Assembly: GCA_963422645.2 (NCBI GenBank)
Contig: CAXXVO010000004.1
Location: forward strand, 1 to 64,000
Source: Alphaproteobacteria bacterium
GTDB lineage: Bacteria; Pseudomonadota; Alphaproteobacteria; UBA828
Length of the DNA stretch: 64,000 nt
Reading direction: 5' to 3'
A program made the translations under genes and the position numbers. Numbering within the stretch: the stretch's first letter is position 1; every line of letters starts with the position of its first letter. The notes beneath the pieces were generated by a model, which was not told the DNA's origin, searched no databases, and worked only from the letters and a program-made list of their open reading frames with translations. Shown here one piece after another: positions 20,590 to 47,180 of the stretch.

Positions 20590-20656
20590 AGGACCGCGCA
20601 GGATTGCGAGGGCGCCGGGCGCGCGACAGGCCGCGGCCCGCCGCGTCAGCGGCGCC

Positions 20657-20686
20657 ATCGCGCACCCGCGCGCGTGGACGCGCGAC
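20657..20686 (-). repeat. Isolated diverged copy of the ~31-nt palindromic micro-element
   Basis: Minus strand reads GTCGCGCGTCCACGCGCGCGGGTGCGCGAT; the first 21 nt are identical to the copies in IS21. Confidence 0.85.
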
Positions 20687-21088
20687 GCGGAGGCGCCGGC
20701 CGCAGGTCGGCTGCCGTGAGCGACAAAGGCGAGAGCGTTTCCGCGTAGCAGAATTTAGCAGAATTTCACTTGACATTCTTCGGCTACCAGGCTGACACTT
20801 TCATCGATAGTTACCCGTTTCATTCATACGATACAGCGGTTTAGTGGGCATCTCCACTATTTGGTGGTGCGGCACACTTCTCGTTATTGACGGATGGACG
20901 AGTTAGAGAAAGTTGGGGCTGGGTGTTGATCGGTGCTCGTGATTTTTGGGCCGTGTGTGAGGGCGATAGGAGATCCCTGTTGGGCCTCGGGTGTGACGGA
21001 CCATATGGTTGAACTGATCTGAGTATGCTCGGTATGCGAGTTCTTATATAGAACGAGGGATGCTGCGGGACCGGTCGGAGATGGGAAG

Positions 21089-21758: not shown

Positions 21759-21799
21759 AAAAGGCCCGCAAGCGAGAGTGTTGTTAAGCTTCCACCGGC

Positions 21800-22050
21800 G
21801 CGGCGCTCCGGCTCGGTCGCGGGAGTAACGGGGGCTTGTGTCTGCGACGCCTCGGTCGTGAACTGGCGGCGGGTGGGGTGAAGAGGCCGTTCGTGCACTG
21901 GCGTGCTGTAGCGGCACCCGCTGTTAAGCTTGGCCCGAACCATTTTGTCGGCTCCGGTCACTGATGGCGCGGGTTTCCCGCGACCTCGTTCAAGAGAATG
22001 GGACTTCGACCATGGTTCCTCCCCGCTCGCGACGGAGATGAAAGGCGGGA
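21800..22050 (+). ncRNA. Candidate IS110 bridge RNA (boundaries approximate)
   Basis: TGTTAAG at 21922-21928 equals the target left flank, TCAAGAG at 21990-21996 equals the element right end, and several hairpins are present. Confidence 0.55.
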
Positions 22051-22059
22051 GGATGTTCC

Positions 22060-23477
22060 ATGGCGCGCAAGTCTCGAAGAACCCGTCGCCTCAGGGTGGT
22101 GAACCCTGACTGCGCAGGGATCGACATCGGCAAGGACCGGCACTTCGTGGCGGTCGAGGCGGAACGCAGCGATGAGCCGGTGCGTTCGTTCGGCTCCTTT
22201 ACCCGCGATCTGGCGGCGATGGCGGCGTGGCTGGCGTCGTGCGGGGTGACGAAGGTCGCAATGGAGTCGACCTCGGTCTACTGGATCCCGGTCTACGAGA
22301 CGCTGGAGCGCGCGGGCTTCGAGGTGATGCTGGTGCCGCCGCGCATGACGAAGCAGATCGGCGGGCGCAAGAGCGACGTGCTGGACTGCCAGTGGATCTG
22401 GCAGCTGATGTCCTACGGTCTGCTGCGGGGAGCGTTCCGTCCGGGCGACGAGGTTTGCCCGCTGCGCTCCTACGCCCGCCAGATGAGGCGGCTGACCGAG
22501 GACCGCTCCCGCTGCGTCCTGCACATGCAAAAGGCGCTGACCGAGATGAACGTCAGGCTCGACTCGGTGATCGCCAACATCACGGGACTGACCGGCCAGC
22601 GCATCCTGCGCGCGATCGTCGACGGCGAGCGTGACCCGGAGCGCCTGGCGACGCTCCGCCACCGGGCATCAAGGCCGACGCCGATACGATCGCCGCGAGC
22701 CTTCAGGGGACGTGGCGCGAGGAGCATCTCTTCGCCCTCGAACAGGCCATGCAGCGCTACGACTTCCTGAGCCAGCAGATCGACGCCTGCGAGGCCCGGG
22801 TGATGGCCGAGGTCGAGCGCCTGACACCGCCGGACGATCCCCCGGACGGCGGCGCGCCGGACCCTGTCCCCGGCACGACCTCGGACACCGCGTCGGGCCG
22901 CTCCGCGAACGCCGCAACCAACGACACCGGCAAGGAGGGCATCCAGCCCCTGGCGTTGCGCAAGATGATGGGCGTCGACCTCACCGCGATCCCCACCGTC
23001 GGTCCCGGTACCGCACTGGTGATCGCCTCGGAGATCGGCCCGGACTTCTCCGCCTTCCCCTCCGCTCAGCACTTCTGCTCCTGGCTTGCGCTCGCGCCGG
23101 GAACCAGGATCAGCGGCGGCAAGAATCTCCCCGGCAAGTCGCCGAAGGCGGTCAACCCCGTCGGACAGGCCCTGCGCTTGGCGGCCATGGCCGCGCGCCG
23201 CAGCCAGACCTTCATCGGCGCCAAGCACCGCGCAAGGCTCGCCCGAATGGACACCCCCGTCGCGATCAAGGCGACCGCCCGCGAACTCGCCTGTCTGATC
23301 TACCTCATGGTGACCGAGGGCCAGGAATACGTCGAGCAGGGCATCGGCGCCTACGAGAAGCGGCGCCTCAACAGAAAGTTCGCTCATCTCGACCGCCAAG
23401 CCCAAAAGCTCGGGTTCCAACTCATCCCGAAAACGCAAGGAGAGGAAAAACAGAACCCAATGCCGTCAATCGCTTAG
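22060..23477 (+). pseudogene. IS110 transposase, frameshifted near 22665
   Basis: AGIDIGK, AMESTSVYW and KSDVLD in the first frame; IPTVG..EIG and LAPGTRISGG in the second. Confidence 0.92.
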
Positions 23478-23603
23478 GCATCTGTTACTCAAGAGCGTGG
23501 AAGATTGACCCCCTGTAGGGGGTGACCGGCGTCCAAAATTGACCCCCCATGGTTTGTGTCCATGAACACACCTCGTCGTTTGGACGGACGGGGTGGGGGG
23601 GAG

Positions 23604-25288
23604 ATGCTGGTTGTGGAAACGATCGCGAAGATTCGTCGGGATCATCTGGTGAAGGGCGTTCCGATCAAGAAGCTCGCCCGGGATTTGAGGGTTTCCAAGA
23701 ACACGATACGCAAGGTGGTGCGGGGCGATGCGACCTCGCACAGCTACGAGCGCAAGATCCAGCCGATGCCGAAGCTTGGGCCGTGGGTGGAAGAGCTCGA
23801 GCGCCAACTGGAGGCCAACGAGAAGAAGAAGCGCAAGGATCGCCTGACCCTGCTGCAGATCCATGAGGACCTTGGCGAGCTGGGCTACAAGGGCGGCTAT
23901 GACGCGGTGCGCCGCTATGCCAGGGCCTGGCGGCGCCGGTGGCGGCTGTTGTCGCCGTCGCAGGCCTTTGTGCCGCTGATCTTCGATCCGGGCGAGGCCT
24001 ACCAGTTCGACTGGAGCCACGAGTACGCGCGTCTGGCGGGTGCGACGACCAAGGTGAAGGCGGCGCACATGCGGCTGTGCCACAGCCGGATGTATCTGGT
24101 CCAGATCTTTCCCCGCGAGAGCCAGGAGATGGTGTTCATCGTGCGCTCCGCGCGCGTGGCCGCGCGACGCGCACGAGCGTGCCTTCTGCTTCTTCGGCGG
24201 GGTCTGCCGGCGGGGCATCTACGACAACATGAAGACGGCGGTGAACACGATTTTCGTCGGCAAGAAGCGGGACTACAACCGCCGCTTCCTGGAGATGTGT
24301 TCGCACCATCTGATCGAGCTTGTCGCGCGTCCACGCGCGCGGAGCGCACGATGGCGTGCACGCCAGGGGCTGGCTGGGAGAAAGGGCAGGTTGAGAAGCA
24401 GGTTGGTGACCTTCGTGGGCGCCTGTTCGCGCGCAGCCCGCGGGGCCGCTCCTACGCCGAGATCAACAAGTGGCTCATGGATCGGTGCATTGAGGAGGCC
24501 AAGAAGCAGCCGCATCCGACGATATCGGGCAAGACGGTGTGGCAGGTGTTCGGGGTCGCGCGTCCACGCGCGCGGAGCGCACGATGAGCGGTCCTTCCTG
24601 ATGGCGTACCGCGGCCCCTTCGACGGCTTCCATGCCAGCGAGGTGTCGGTCTCGAAGACCTGTCTGGTGCGCTACGACAACAACCAGTACAGCGTGGCGG
24701 CCCGTGCGGTGGGGCGGCCGGTGGACGTGCGGGCCTATGCCGATCGGATCGTCATCCGCCAGGACGGCGCGATGGTCGCCGAGCATCCCCGCAGCTTCGG
24801 GCGCGGCGAGATCGCCTACGATCCGTGGCACTACGTGCCGGTCCTGACGCGGAAGCCCGGCGCGCTGCGCAACGGCGCGCCCTTCAAGGGCTGGAAGCTG
24901 CCCACCGCGCTCGGCCGCCTGCGAACCCGGCTGGCGGCCCGCGACGACGGCGACCGGCAGTTCGTCAAGGTGCTGGCGGCGGTGCTGGAGGACGGGCTGT
25001 CGCGCGCTCATGCGCGCGCCAATATAGAGGACGGTCGAGGCGGCCTGTGCCGAGGCGCTCGACTGCGGCGCCTGCAGCGCTGACGTCGTGCGCTCCGCGC
25101 GCGTGGACGCGCGACGTGCTCAACGTCCTCGCCCGGCAGCGCCAGCCTGCGCCGCCGGCAACCATCCCGACGCCCGAAGGTCTGCAGCTCCGCCACCAGC
25201 CGGTTGCCGACTGCCGCCGCTACGACAGCCTGAGGGAGGACGGTCATCCGGTGTGGCGCGCGCATAAGCGCGCGACGGAGCGTCATGA
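23604..25288 (+). pseudogene. istA: IS21 transposase IstA disrupted by multiple short insertions
   Basis: QFDWS, IYDNMKTAV, WEKGQVE and RKPGALRNG are spread over different frames. Confidence 0.92.
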
Positions 25289-25331
25289 TGTGCTGGAGAT
25301 GTCGCGCGTCCACGCGCGCGGAACTCACGAT
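24138..25331. repeat. Seven dispersed ~31-nt palindromic micro-insertions
   Basis: Type A (GTCGCGCGTCCACGCGCGCGGAGCGCACGAT): 24138-24168(-), 24322-24352(+), 24555-24585(+), 25085-25115(-), 25301-25331(+). Type B (GTCGCGCGCTYATGCGCGCGCCA...): 24999-25029(+), 25246-25276(-). Confidence 0.95.
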
Positions 25332-26032
25332 GACGGCGCTGAAGCTCGCGGGCATGCGCGCCGCCTATGACGACATCCTCGCCGACGGGCTCAAGCGCCG
25401 CCACCCGGTGCAGCAGATCATCGGTACGCTGCTGCAGGTCGAGATCGCCGACAAGAGAGCACGCTCGATCAAGTACCAGATGGCCTCCGCCAAGCTGCCC
25501 ACGGCCTGCGGCGCTGGCCGACTTCGACTTCGCCGCCTCGCCGGTCCATGAGCCCCTGATCCAGGAGCTCGCCGGCAGCGGCTTCCTCGAGGGCCAGCGC
25601 AACATCGTGCTGGTCGGCGGTACCGGCACCGGCAAGACCCATCTCGCCGTCGCCATCGCGCGCTCCTGCATCCGCAAGGGCGCCCGTGGCCGGTGCTACA
25701 ACGTCGTCGACCTGGTCAACCTCCTCGAGGCCGAGCTTCGCGCCGGACGCCAGGGCCGCACTGCAGACCAGCTCGTCCGCCGCGACTTCGTCATCCTCGA
25801 CGAGCTCGGCTACCTGCCCTTCGCCCAGGCCGGTGGGCAGCTGCTCTTCCATCTGATGAGCCGGCTCTACGAGCGCACCTCGATCGTCATCACCACAAAC
25901 CTCGCCTTCGGCGAATGGCCCTCCGTCTTCGGCGACCCCAAGATGACCACGGCCCTGCTCGATCGTCTCACCCACCATTGCGAGATCATCGAGACCGGCA
26001 ACGAGAGCTGGCGCTTCAAGAACCGCTCCTGA
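25246..26032 (+). pseudogene. istB: IS21 ATPase IstB; start codon split by an insertion, plus further frameshifts
   Basis: [17 protein letters not shown] and LLDRLTHH motifs; the N-terminus MERHDVLEMMTALKL is recoverable after removing the inserts. Confidence 0.92.
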
Positions 26033-26168
26033 CCCGGCGCCGGCCTCCCTTGCGGCCCGGTTGCCCCGGTGGGCCAACCAATGGCATTCACTTAGCGGTT
26101 TTCGACTGTTCACTTAAGGAGTCGTGTTCTTGCGCTGTCGGTTGCGTGCGTTTCTGTCGTTCAGGTGT

Positions 26169-27671
26169 TCAGGCGACGGCCCGCTTTGCGCGTGCCCACT
26201 TGCCGCGGGGTTTGCGCGACCTGCGTTCGCAGGACCGGCCGGGGTGCGGGCGCTGACGCGCCTGGTTGATGCAGGAGAGGACATGGCTGAGGGTTTCGGC
26301 GACCATCGCCGTATGGCGCAGCAGCAGCGCTTCGAGGTTGCGCGCGACGGTGGCGAGGCCGTTGCTGAAGTTGGCTTTCATCGCCGGCTTGCCGTCGGCA
26401 GGGCGCTCGGCGTCGAGGCTTGCGTTGCTGCGGTTGGTGAAGAGCCGGGTCATGGCGATGAGGTTGAAGTGGGCGAAGAGCTCCTGGCGGACGCCGCGCT
26501 CGGTCTGGCTGTGGAAGGCCTCGACGGCCATGGCCTGTTTCGAGGTCTTGTAGAGTTCCTCGATTCCCCAGCGCGCGTGATAGAGCTCGGCCAGTTCCGC
26601 GACGCTCCAGGCCTTGGGGTCGAGGAGGGTGGTGGCGAGGATGAAGACCGTGCTGCCGATGCGGTAGCGGACCAGTCGCAGGCGCAGCGGGGTGGCGTCG
26701 ACGTGCGGCGTCTTGCGGCGCAGCTTTCTCAGGGTGTCCTTTCCGGGAGCGACGGTGATCGGCGCGTCCGTGCGGCCGTCGGCGATGAAGGCGTCGAGGG
26801 CGGCGCCTGCCTTCTTCTTGATCCGGAACACGGGGTGCAGGCCGCGGGCGACATGGGCGTGCAGCATCTCCCAAGAGTAGTAGCCGCGGTCATAGACCAC
26901 GATGTCGTTGGCCGAGAGCGCCTTGAGGTGGGCGAGGGCGGCCCTTCTTTCGTCGCCGTGCGCGACCAGGTCGAAGTCCACCGGGATGTTCGCGTGCAGC
27001 CGGTAGAGGCAACTCAGCAGGCCCTGCGGGTAGTGGGCCGCCTCGGAGGGCGTGCGGTAGCCGGCCTTGAGCAGCGGCCGCGGCAGGTTGAGCTTGGAGC
27101 CGTCGACCGCGAACACGCGGTGGCCCTTCCAGGCCGGGCCGTCGGCGCGCTTGAGGATCTCGGCGTGCAGCGTCTTGAACACCGCCTCGTCGACCTTGGC
27201 CCGCGCCATGCACATCGCCGAGGCCGAGACCGGCGCCGGCTGCGGCAGTGCGACGCCCAGGACCCGGCACTGCTCCCACAGCCCGGCCAGCGTCGTGGCG
27301 TAGCCCGCGCGGCCGTTCGAGAACGCCAGCCGGAAGATGAAGAGCATGACGAGAAGGGTGTCGAGGACCCGCCGGCGGCTCTGCCACACCCGGTCGTGAT
27401 CGGCGGCCACCGCCGCCAGTGCGCCGATCAGGTCCTGCCACAGCGCCACGAAGGGATCGTCCGGCGCCAGCGCTGCCGGCCGTGTCCTGTTCCCGCGCCG
27501 CGCCGGCCGCGGGCCTTCGAGCAGGATCGAGCGGAAGTCCGGCGTCAGCGGGTAGACGTAGACGCTTTTGCGGGTCTTGCCCTTGCCGCCCCCGGTCTCG
27601 CCGAGACAGCGCCAGTTGGCCGCGCGGTAGCAGGCGCCGTCGAAGAGGCTGGGGTCCACGAAGGTCTCCAC
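26169..27671 (-). pseudogene. C-terminal part of DUF4338-IS4 transposase
   Basis: ETFVD..GACYRAANW (end of DUF4338); AVDGS, YDRGY and Y..RWGIEE.YK (IS4 YREK). Confidence 0.88.
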
Positions 27672-27791
27672 GAACGTCACAGACTACTATCTTGCAGGCT
27701 TCCGAGGCTCCTGAGCCCGTTCGCATTCGACGCTACAAGCATCCTTTCGACGGTGAGGCGATCGAGATTCTCGATCGGCGCAAAGGAGGTT

Positions 27792-45989: not shown

Positions 45990-47180
45990 TGAACCGCTCC
46001 GGCTTTCCCGGAGGCAGTTTGGTTTGAGTCATGCAGCCATATTGAGGTTCTCGCTGGCGGCATAGTGATTTGCTTCGGCCTCAGCGGGCGGGATGTTACC
46101 GATGGGGCCGAGCAGGCGTTGATTATTGAACCAGTCCACCCATTCGAGGGTGGCGTATTCGACGGCCTCGAACGATCTCCACGGGCCGCGCCGGTGGATC
46201 ACCTCGGCCTTGTAGAGGCCGTTGATCGTTTCGGCCAACGCGTTGTCGTAGCTGTCGCCGACACTGCCGACCGATGGATCGATCCCGGCTTCGGCCAGAC
46301 GCTCGGAGTATTTGATCGACAGGTATTGGACGCCGCGGTCGCTGTGATGCACGAGGCCCGATCCCCTGGCGGGCTTCCGGGCGTGTATCGCCTGTTCCAG
46401 GGCATCCAGAACGAAGCTTGCATGAGCCGTGCGGCTCACCCGCCATCCGACGATCCGGCGTGCGAAGGCATCGATCACGAAGGCCACATAGACGAACCCG
46501 GCCCAGGTCGCGACATAGGTGAAGTCCGCCACCCACAGACGATTGGGCCCGGGCGCCTGGAACTGCCGGTTCACCTTGTCGAGCGGGCACGCCGCTCCCT
46601 TGTCGCTGACCGTGGTCTTCACCGGCTTGCCCCTGATCGCCCCGGCAAGGCCGAGATCGCGCATCAGCCGCTCGACGGTGCAGCGGGCAACGTCCAGGCC
46701 TTCGCGCCGTAGCTGGCGCCAGATCTTGCGGGCGCCATAGACCGAGTAGTTCGTCTCGAAGACGCGCTCGATCTCCGCCATCAGTACCAGATCACGCCGG
46801 GCACGATCCGGCAGCAGCGACGGATCGCGCTGTCTGCCGGCATGAAGCCGGTACGTGGACGGGGCGATCGGCAGAACCTTGCAGATCGGCTCGACCCCAT
46901 AGGTATCGCGATGCTCGTCGATGAAGGCGATCATCGCTTGAGTGGGCGGTCGAGCTCCGCCTGGGCAAAATAGGCACTGGCTTTGCGCAGAATCTCGTTC
47001 GCCTGGCGCAGCTCGCGAACCTCGCGTTCCAGCGCCCTGACCCGCGCACGATCGTCGCTGGTCATGCCCGACCTGGCGCCGCTGTCTTGTTCAGCCCGAC
47101 GGACCCACCGCCGCAGCGTCTCGGTCGTGCAGCCGAACTTCGCCGCGATCGAACACATCGCCGCCCATTGCGAGCCATGC
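45990..47180 (-). mobile_element. IS3-family element, left end deleted (orfA 46931-~47180, orfB 46029-46934)
   Basis: TGAACC terminus; WVADFTY, HSDRG, SYDNALAE and [15 protein letters not shown] motifs. Confidence 0.93.

Follow-up and report, generated by a model that had tools for sequence, protein, structure and literature searches.

Why should a single dead transposon carry seven closely similar palindromes, each of which throws its reading frame out of register? The question is raised by a 64,000-nucleotide stretch of alphaproteobacterial DNA (the 'window' in what follows), which forms the first 64 kb of contig C5 of its source genome, G000 (5.9 Mb, 67% G+C, 23 contigs), and in which a decayed insertion sequence (IS) of the IS21 family, comprising istA and istB, holds seven G+C-rich hairpin modules ('units') between 24137 and 25332. 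As a first-pass annotation, made from the letters alone, had described, the units lie on both strands and at irregular spacing; with about 40 matches to the hairpin pattern in 5.9 Mb, only 0.008 would be expected in 1.2 kb, so that chance clustering is excluded. The reading that we favour, with somewhat more confidence than doubt, is that these are members of a genus-restricted family of hairpin modules, similar to repetitive extragenic palindromic (REP) sequences, which move as whole modules, insert by pairing of their ends with the target, spread mostly in cis, and persist where selection is lacking. Labels used below are G for genomes of the genus, L for individual loci, C for contigs and X for public sequencing runs.

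Pairwise alignment of the relic with one of the genome's intact copies of this IS21 (C5:221208-223594, on whose coordinates insertion sites are quoted), run twice, opens exactly seven gaps, of 28, 29, 28, 28, 28, 29 and 28 nt, and each unit therefore shifts the frame of the element. This is what the first-pass annotation had deduced from the net removal of 28-29 nt, and the peptides that it restored in this way fit the intact copy (VFDAH as against VFEAH, DVVLN, and EMMT). Its division into two subtypes also holds: five of the units follow the type-1 consensus GTCGCGCG-TCCA-CGCGCGCGGAGCGCACGATG, and the remaining two, of subtype 2, consist of GTCGCGCGCTYATGCGCGCGCC and then a variable tail. 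Unit 7 sits where a copy had been said to interrupt the start of istB, inside the ATGATGA overlap of the istA stop and istB start codons, between GGAGAT and GATGAC, with 1 nt ambiguous (Table 1).

Table 1. Features of the relic and its surroundings, the eight units of the window, and the 4-mers replaced by units (type-1 and 31-nt units, in element orientation). Positions are those of the window unless otherwise stated; 'reference' denotes the intact IS21 copy.
Feature	Position	Strand	Details
Decayed IS21 body (istA + istB)	23494-26078	+	6.3% substitutions vs 67 intact copies
Probable first 11 nt of IS21 left end, TGTTGTTAAGC	21779-21789	+	same junctions at two further loci
IS110-family element inside IS21 left end	21790-23496	+	last 3 nt ambiguous with IS21
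DDE_Tnp_1 transposase gene, neighbour	26169-27680	-	its IS begins immediately past IS21 right end
Unit 1	24137-24168	-	type 1, GCCA loop, net +28 nt, CTCG (element orientation) replaced, reference 644
Unit 2	24322-24353	+	type 1, net +29 nt (L040/L060: +28), reference 799-802
Unit 3	24555-24586	+	type 1, net +28 nt, GAGG replaced, reference 1005
Unit 4	24999-25026	+	subtype 2 (GTCGCGCGCTCATGCGCGCGCC + variable tail), net +28 nt, reference 1421
Unit 5	25084-25115	-	type 1 ending GACG, net +28 nt, CACG replaced, reference 1481
Unit 6	25248-25276	-	subtype 2, clean 29-nt insertion between CTCC and ATGA, reference 1614
Unit 7	25301-25332	+	type 1, diverged tail AACTCAC, net +28 nt, target 4-mer GATG, reference 1636-1638
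Eighth unit of window	20655-20686	-	central hairpin loop of family-A MITE (~20600-20780)
Replaced 4-mer CTCG	IS21 site 644		
Replaced 4-mer CTCG	IS21 site 941		
Replaced 4-mer TGTG	IS21 site 799		
Replaced 4-mer GAGG	IS21 site 1005		
Replaced 4-mer GTCG	IS21 site 1475		
Replaced 4-mer CACG	IS21 site 1481		
Replaced 4-mer GATG	IS21 site 1636		
Replaced 4-mer GAGG	MITE loop in G000		
Replaced 4-mer TGCG	MITE loop in G024		
Replaced 4-mer GTCG	IS5-like gene		
Replaced 4-mer GATG	unit nested in unit, L024		
Replaced 4-mer GTCG	unit nested in unit, L028		

A pattern of this kind could, in principle, be an artefact of assembly, adapters or chimeric joining. An exact 28-mer scan, taking one genome per species, returned 34 loci in nine metagenome-assembled genomes (MAGs) labelled Alphaproteobacteria, Rhodospirillales or Rhodospirillaceae, and four of these loci, in separately assembled MAGs, are IS21 homologues whose units occupy positions that are also filled in the window: those of unit 1 (L001 and L007), of unit 2 (L001, L007 and L030), and of units 6 and 7 together (L004). 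Nothing was found in favour of an artefact, other than that public runs match the stretch only in part, the best of them containing a fraction of 0.24-0.36 of its sampled words and none more than 0.36. Contigs of four such runs, from four studies, were aligned to the stretch; they are short, single ones bridge units 5-7 only, and stretches without cover are uninformative, but a contig of X2 spans 25087-25410 without a gap and with 1 base different, and units 6 and 7 are covered gaplessly by contigs of X1, X2 and X4, that is, from three studies. The module is, furthermore, present at about 30 other places in G000 and in 16 other genomes. Since separately assembled MAGs and contigs from three studies share the inserts, we consider them to be real, and the prospect that they are artefactual to be negligible. 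An X6 contig lacks unit 2 (29 gap letters), so filled and empty forms coexist in nature.

The conserved module measures 31-33 nt, close to the 31 nt first estimated, and opens with GTCG at its 5' end, followed by a G+C stem of 6-7 bp around a loop of 3-5 nt and by ~8 nt of tail, and closes with GATG at its 3' end, with between 1 and 7 of its end bases coinciding with or replacing bases of the target; the terminal GA(T/C/G) of the first-pass annotation is better given as GATG, GACG or GATC. The hairpin has a folding energy of -9.2 to -11.4 kcal/mol (DNA parameters). Of 79 ungapped 32-mers, drawn from G000 and the retrieved loci, 30 are the same from genome to genome, and there are only 26 distinct sequences; 22 of these 26 carry the GTCG tag, the remainder having ATCG (2), AGCG (1) or Ns (1). 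A single compensatory pair among the 26 is too weak a signal of covariation to be informative.

At every site for which an empty counterpart is known, the module is complete, 1-7 bases of the target are gone, and the target is not duplicated. The 12 replaced 4-mers listed in Table 1 all end in G, with A or T at position 2 and C or T at position 3 in 10 of 12 cases each, which places the target at about NWYG, a motif resembling the module's own ends, GTCG and GATG (both GWYG). At IS21 site 596, a subtype-2 unit is a 29-nt insertion immediately 5' of GATG. The left end is GTCG at two independent sites where unfilled homologues have CTCG, and unit 5, with a target of CACG, ends in GACG. The empty site in dusA, ATCGACG, resembles both ends of the module and the net gain there is only 24 nt, while a second IS21-family istA has gained 30 nt net, with 1-2 nt of overlap; the range of 24-30 nt arises because the net gain is the module length minus those target bases able to pair with the ends. 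Units are also nested within units, in both phases (L024, L028).

Size, hairpin, a conserved 4-nt tag at one end and the lack of target duplication would all suit a classical REP or REPIN (a hairpin formed by paired REPs), or an IS200/IS605-type palindrome-associated transposable element (PATE), moved by a Y1 HUH transposase that has since disappeared or is encoded on a different replicon or in a different organism; so would the choice of hairpin loops and of places next to a tetranucleotide-like motif as insertion sites, and a GTAG that adjoins many copies of the 'family B' context described below. Against this, Y1_Tnp (PF01797), which covers both the REP-associated tyrosine transposases (RAYTs) and the TnpA of IS200/IS605, gave no match in any of 21 genomes of the genus, whilst control genomes were positive; TnpB was not found in G000. 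The left GTCG stands where the empty site has CTCG, TGTG, GAGG, CACG or GATG, contradicting the retained 5' tetra- or pentanucleotide of a PATE, and the number of target bases replaced varies. The tag is GTCG and not the GTAG of RAYT-associated REPs, and the inverted pairing that characterises a REPIN was seen in one head-to-head pair only (L084), with no close inverted pair outside the IS21 relics in the position lists. We consequently rate a Y1-driven origin as quite unlikely, and the HUH mobilisation put forward by the first-pass annotation falls with it. Its notion of an excision scar fares no better, as the position lists of the genomes hold no gene flanked by inverted units, and no longer element with the module's ends was found. 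What does stand is the idea of a minimal, REP-like mobile unit: the module is a short, imperfect palindrome, repeated and mainly extragenic.

PF04986 (Y2, IS91/rolling-circle) gave no match, but the control genomes gave none either, and three fragments of reverse transcriptase genes are present without a link to anything. Cas1, to which mobilisation had also been attributed, occurs in 9 of the 21 genomes in a manner that does not match the units, with several matches in each of two of the four unit-free genomes and none in 10 of the 17 unit-bearing ones; furthermore, the clustered regularly interspaced short palindromic repeat (CRISPR) arrays of G000 (C16:194006-198690 and C7:274384-277945) have 36-nt repeats unrelated to the module. 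We therefore discard a Cas1 or CRISPR origin. Beside the first array lies a cas1 (C16:199399-200277) within an open frame of ~604 aa, possibly a fusion. Nor does the module have the hallmarks of a miniature inverted-repeat transposable element (MITE) of the DDE type, as its terminal symmetry is an imperfect 7 nt (TCGCGCG / TCGTGCG), target duplication is lacking and target bases are replaced.

The host of the seven units is an IS21-family element by its gene order, istA (DDE) followed by istB (AAA+ helper), and by its colinearity with the 67 intact 2387-bp copies; its istA and istB have ~72% identity to annotated homologues, and IstB_IS21 is matched in Pfam at 25367-26032 (3e-63), although the N-terminal 177 residues of istA, searched alone, had no Pfam match. 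It is also a dead relic, its left end being apparently split by an IS110-family element and its istB bearing an additional +1 frameshift apart from the units. Relative to the intact copy, 151 of 2386 positions are substituted (6.3%), one nucleotide is missing near 23596, and istB has gained one near 25507. On these grounds, the setting is 'old dispensable DNA', as the first-pass annotation had it. Removal of the inserts at the RNA level, or translational bypass, was considered and rejected, given that units occur in both orientations and that the istB frameshift is separate from them.

G000 contains, in addition, 67 full-length copies of the 2387-bp IS21, at least 99.9% identical to one another, and nine fragments that are 100% identical; this one IS21-family element has expanded massively and recently in the genome. 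All 67 copies are free of units, as are eight full or near-full homologues in other genomes (L036-L039, L043 and L057-L059; 4-11% diverged), of which L059 is interrupted by an unrelated 1334-nt element. Unit-bearing relics comprise that of the window (seven units), L060, which is L007 (four), L041, which is L004 (three), L040, which is L030 (one), L042/L061 (one) and L001 (at least two), with L129 and L122 also of this kind. Between them, relics from six genomes have received units at 12 different sites (reference positions 596, 644, 799-802, 941, 1005, 1215, 1421, 1475, 1481, 1614, 1636-1638 and ~2050), and these are shared in mosaic fashion between relics that differ by 10-12%. The insertion of unit 1 recurs in L001 and L007/L060, and the site of unit 2 has three different left junctions (in the window, in L001, and in L030/L007). 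The sites of units 6 and 7 are common to L004/L041, with conserved hairpins and with tails that differ from those of the window at 5 positions; for unit 6 the hairpin is identical and the tail different, and for unit 7, 5 of 32 bases differ. Internal deletions in L001 (G043) and L129 (G025:C176) begin at a unit, that in L001 running from unit 2 to unit 3, which suggests that units also act as short substrates for recombination.

L001 also lies close to an orthologue of a gene ~7 kb from the window relic, and on this basis the relics appear to be partly vertically descended. Taken together, we suggest that units were gained stepwise over a time exceeding the age of the species, and that relics have recombined with one another. 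In density, the relics (seven units in ~2.6 kb, four in 1.45 kb, three in 1.7 kb) are far removed from the genome at large (roughly 30 in 5.9 Mb). All five exact copies of subtype 2 (0 mismatches) lie inside IS21 relics, as do two of the seven matches at 1 mismatch, four of the others being one orthologous intergenic locus. From the density of units in relics and the confinement of subtype 2, it looks as if new copies mainly arise near old ones, in either orientation, in support of the local spread first envisaged; saying this, cis spread and a true affinity for IS21 DNA cannot be separated with the present data.

Such a concentration in one IS might instead mean that a dedicated system, of the host or of another mobile element, aims the module at transposase genes, IS21 foremost, so as to disable them, as the first-pass annotation had proposed. 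Genic sites do fall mostly in IS (12 in IS21 relics, one in the second istA, and one in an IS5-like gene) versus a single housekeeping gene, dusA, and the seven units in ~2.6 kb of relic compare with roughly one per 150 kb elsewhere in the genome; moreover, two of the three near-complete unit-free genomes lack this IS21 (G032 and G039, each with 2-3 weak, short matches) and the third, G042, keeps only a 161-nt end fragment; judged by marker genes, these three are 100% complete and the fourth unit-free genome, G031, is 67% complete. A silencing system, however, would have spared every one of the 67 active copies of G000 and another eight homologues of full or nearly full length, would in the IS5-like gene and the second istA have inserted in frame and left the frame open, and would have placed most copies genome-wide in intergenic DNA or MITEs. 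The NWYG target is far too short to specify IS21, and selection alone accounts for frameshifting copies being found only in dispensable DNA. We consider targeted inactivation to be very improbable.

The genic copies are instructive here (coding context was judged by the phase of G+C at third codon positions, comparison with paralogues, and Pfam). That units would be missing from other IS and intact genes, as first thought, is true of the genes within the window, whose eighth copy occupies a MITE (Table 1), but does not extend to the genome: three further genic contexts exist in G000, namely dusA, an IS5-like DDE transposase gene (2 copies) and the second IS21-family istA. In each of them the insert is a 31-nt variant, its loop being 3 nt long, that keeps the frame and leaves the open reading frame (ORF) intact, adding 8-10 residues; in dusA, one continuous Dus match (residues 29-341) spans the insert. 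The 32-nt and subtype-2 units of the relic shift the IS21 frame whereas the 31-nt genic units keep theirs, and the simplest reading is therefore a selection filter, by which only in-frame events survive in important genes and anything survives in dead DNA.

The dusA unit (C8:184518-184548 in G000; also L094 in G038 and L106 in G035) further provides a history. The site is filled in 3 of 21 genomes and empty in 18, with G000 and G038 sharing a junction, and G035 having two tandem units and a different junction. A tree of 477 columns of flanking sequence does not unite the filled alleles in one clade, G038 being sister to the empty G043 (support 1.0) and G035 to the empty G024 (0.91), so that at least two gains are needed: insertion at this site is recurrent. 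The tree probably records three gains, or else gain together with precise loss or transfer of alleles.

A profile search of G000 with nhmmer gave 48 matches at E values up to 10, about 30 of them credible. Across the genus the unit is present in 16 of 20 other genomes, at 1-25 copies per genome (3 or fewer mismatches), and it is found in none of 23 genomes from nine other genera of the family; a reversed-pattern control gave 0 matches. Neither the units nor ten loci that bear them matched an Rfam family, the only matches being a tRNA and an ALIL pseudoknot elsewhere; the latter (RF01497, 120 bits, window 46860-46976, minus strand) is the frameshift signal of an IS3-family element. Most copies in G000 are intergenic or in MITEs, and outside the relic most fall into three recurrent contexts, families A, B and C. 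Family A, a MITE of ~175 nt bounded by TAGAGCG...CGCTCTA, has 57 copies in G000, 7 of which hold the unit in the central hairpin loop and 8 of which hold a third hairpin module, GTCGCGCC-GACA-GGCGCGCGGAAGCATAGAAT in reverse; as a whole, the MITE consists of G+C hairpins set one within another, to which modules may be added. In family B, G+C hairpins form a mosaic between genes that are unrelated from copy to copy; the possibility that it represents an IS end was rejected, as the ORFs downstream of its copies are mutually unrelated. Family C is a further repeated context, in nine loci of which ARAGORN found no tRNA, though one stretch resembles a T-arm.

Two paralogous coding regions (C13:118800-119150 and C7:2650-2900) contain 27-nt repeats that encode approximately HARRAHD and resemble the unit minus its CGCG, and hence have no hairpin; these may be old in-frame units turned into coding repeats.

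How, then, do the modules move? Enzyme-free template switching during replication, in which the nascent strand would move to a nearby unit through 1-4 nt of homology, copy it and come back, with the hairpin promoting stalling, would make the units mutational by-products, and much is compatible with it: homology at one or both junctions, a net length of 24-30 nt, clustering within ~1.2 kb in both orientations, the near-confinement of subtype 2 to IS21 relics, the lack of a candidate transposase in the searches above, and clusters of substitutions that adjoin some junctions (e.g. ACCCAG to ACGGCG after unit 7). Template switching, however, should vary in its entry and exit points and carry donor flank, and it leaves the invariant ends unexplained. 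All 12 IS21 sites hold a complete module with the same two ends (insertions of at least 12 nt), the only other small insertions being one of 13 nt, shared by L037/L042, and one in L001 that duplicates 24 nt, and the module has in addition reached unlinked sites, in dusA and in MITE loops. We see this explanation as a serious contender and, on balance, an improbable one.

Because every IS21 insertion of this sequence is a whole module, set against just two other small insertions, we favour a discrete hairpin intermediate and, with it, the end-pairing mobility proposed at the outset. We suggest that the module would be released or copied as a discrete hairpin strand, and that this strand would be joined into nearby DNA, for which it may have a preference, through base-pairing of its own GWYG ends with the target, such that GTCG and GATG take the place of a short NWYG-like motif; the enzyme responsible would be neither a Y1 HUH transposase nor Cas1. 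The dead IS21, of a lineage older than the present species, would have gathered modules stepwise, several of them in common with the relics of other species. Clustering would then stem from three causes: copies arising near existing ones, no selection on a dead IS, and the persistence and recombination of relics; in genes that need an open frame, only in-frame versions would survive.

Several points weigh against this proposal. Neither an enzyme, an intermediate, nor a fresh (polymorphic) insertion was seen, and the events are old and filtered by selection. Net length varies (24, possibly 26, 27, 28, 29 and 30), which fits end-pairing but would be unusual for a dedicated transposase. The empty-site comparators are paralogues and orthologues that are 6-22% diverged, and single-base junction calls such as CTCG to GTCG could partly be later change. 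Sites shared between relics may reflect descent and recombination instead of site preference, and the census is pattern-based, so that truncated modules elsewhere in the genome escape it. Finally, G000 contains another diverged fragment of IS21 (C8:528400-529370, 92.5% identity), in which four of the known sites are all empty, and age alone does not, therefore, bring units; relaxed selection is necessary but insufficient for the density of units in relics.

A bolder version would have the module as a 'parasite of a parasite', which prefers IS21 DNA, multiplies in cis, spreads between species on relics that can still transpose, kills IS copies, and relies on a new type of enzyme recognising a GWYG core at both the element's ends and the target; we mention this as a doubtful extension.

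As regards the surroundings of the relic, the IS110-family element (Transposase_20 match at 22749-23477) appears to have inserted 11 nt into an IS21-type left end with an identical junction at three loci (window 21779-23496, C18:201175-202897 and C3:154826-153108), which suggests that it targets IS21 termini. On the other side, the neighbouring DDE_Tnp_1 IS abuts the right end of IS21, so that the relic sits in an IS-rich stretch; the 33-nt end repeat of this neighbour has many occurrences. Over 100 near-identical ends belong to a second IS in G000, seen beside C13:128345. Within the relic's istB (~25500-25512), five clustered substitutions and a 1-nt insertion yield GGCCTGCGGC, a 10-mer also found within the MITE hairpin; this may be a short templated patch, or chance.

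The wider interest of the locus is that the movement of REP-like repeats that have no RAYT is an open question, made explicit for the alphaproteobacterial CGTC class by Di Nocera, De Gregorio and Rocco (2013; PMC3733652). With IS21 copies and dusA orthologues as empty-site references, about 20 dated insertion events come with exact junctions, which is rarely the case, and the junction rule (a complete module, GWYG ends pairing with an NWYG target, a site that can be hit again) narrows the search for an enzyme. The locus also shows that, in a symbiont lineage rich in IS, tiny hairpin repeats can be a main route by which these decay, and annotators of this genus should expect hairpin inserts of 24-30 nt in frameshifted or lengthened genes.

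Literature searches, which covered main texts, returned nothing on this repeat, nor on an IS filled with REP-like units, and the module is best placed by comparison. Its ~32 nt, GTCGCGC start and internal hairpin recall the type I-C CRISPR repeat, but it has no spacers or array and occurs in both orientations, and neither the repeats of the resident arrays nor the distribution of Cas1 relates to it. In yeast mitochondria, GC clusters are mobile G+C-rich hairpins of ~30-50 nt, found in genes and other elements and with no identified enzyme; the likeness is that of a G+C hairpin inserting into genes and elements, whereas kingdom and sequence differ, and the clusters' own target and duplication features are not seen in the module. 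PATEs and REPINs share with it a hairpin with short end motifs, no target duplication, and insertion beside a tetranucleotide-like motif, but the module differs in having no Y1 transposase in the 21 genomes, in not retaining the target tetranucleotide, and in occurring as single units. Rickettsia palindromic elements (RPEs) are unrelated in sequence, and RPE-1 is much longer; copies of the module are, moreover, mostly non-coding, and those in IS21 cause frameshifts. What the two have in common, RPEs being cited in PMC3733652, is palindromes lying in frame in open genes.

The closest relatives are the tagged palindromic repeats, with their GTAG and CGTC super-families, described in PMC3733652 as hairpins between 20 and 40 nt long in which a tetranucleotide tag is left unpaired and a short tail follows; they lie mainly between genes, at times within other palindromes and occasionally inside genes. 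In the same paper, the CGTC class is given as typical of alphaproteobacteria and apparently without a dedicated transposase, with a terminal CGTC, TGTC or CCTC, an 8-9-bp stem that almost invariably starts with A/T pairs, a 4-5-nt loop and a CCA tail. The module shares with REPs, bacterial interspersed mosaic elements (BIMEs) and the tagged repeats its hairpin, tag, tail, mostly intergenic location, nesting and occasional presence in genes, and with the CGTC class a fitting 4-nt loop and no dedicated transposase found; it departs from both the GTAG and the CGTC classes in its GTCG tag, its all-G+C stem of 6-7 bp, and a tail of ~12 nt that ends in GATG and not CCA. We thus place it among the tagged palindromic repeats, a described general class of the sort that the first-pass annotation had set against its own proposal of a new mobile unit, but with a distribution that is anything but unbiased, and with features of its own: low copy number (about 1-25 per genome), restriction to one genus, density in one IS lineage, and a junction rule in which 1-7 bases of the target give way to a complete module.

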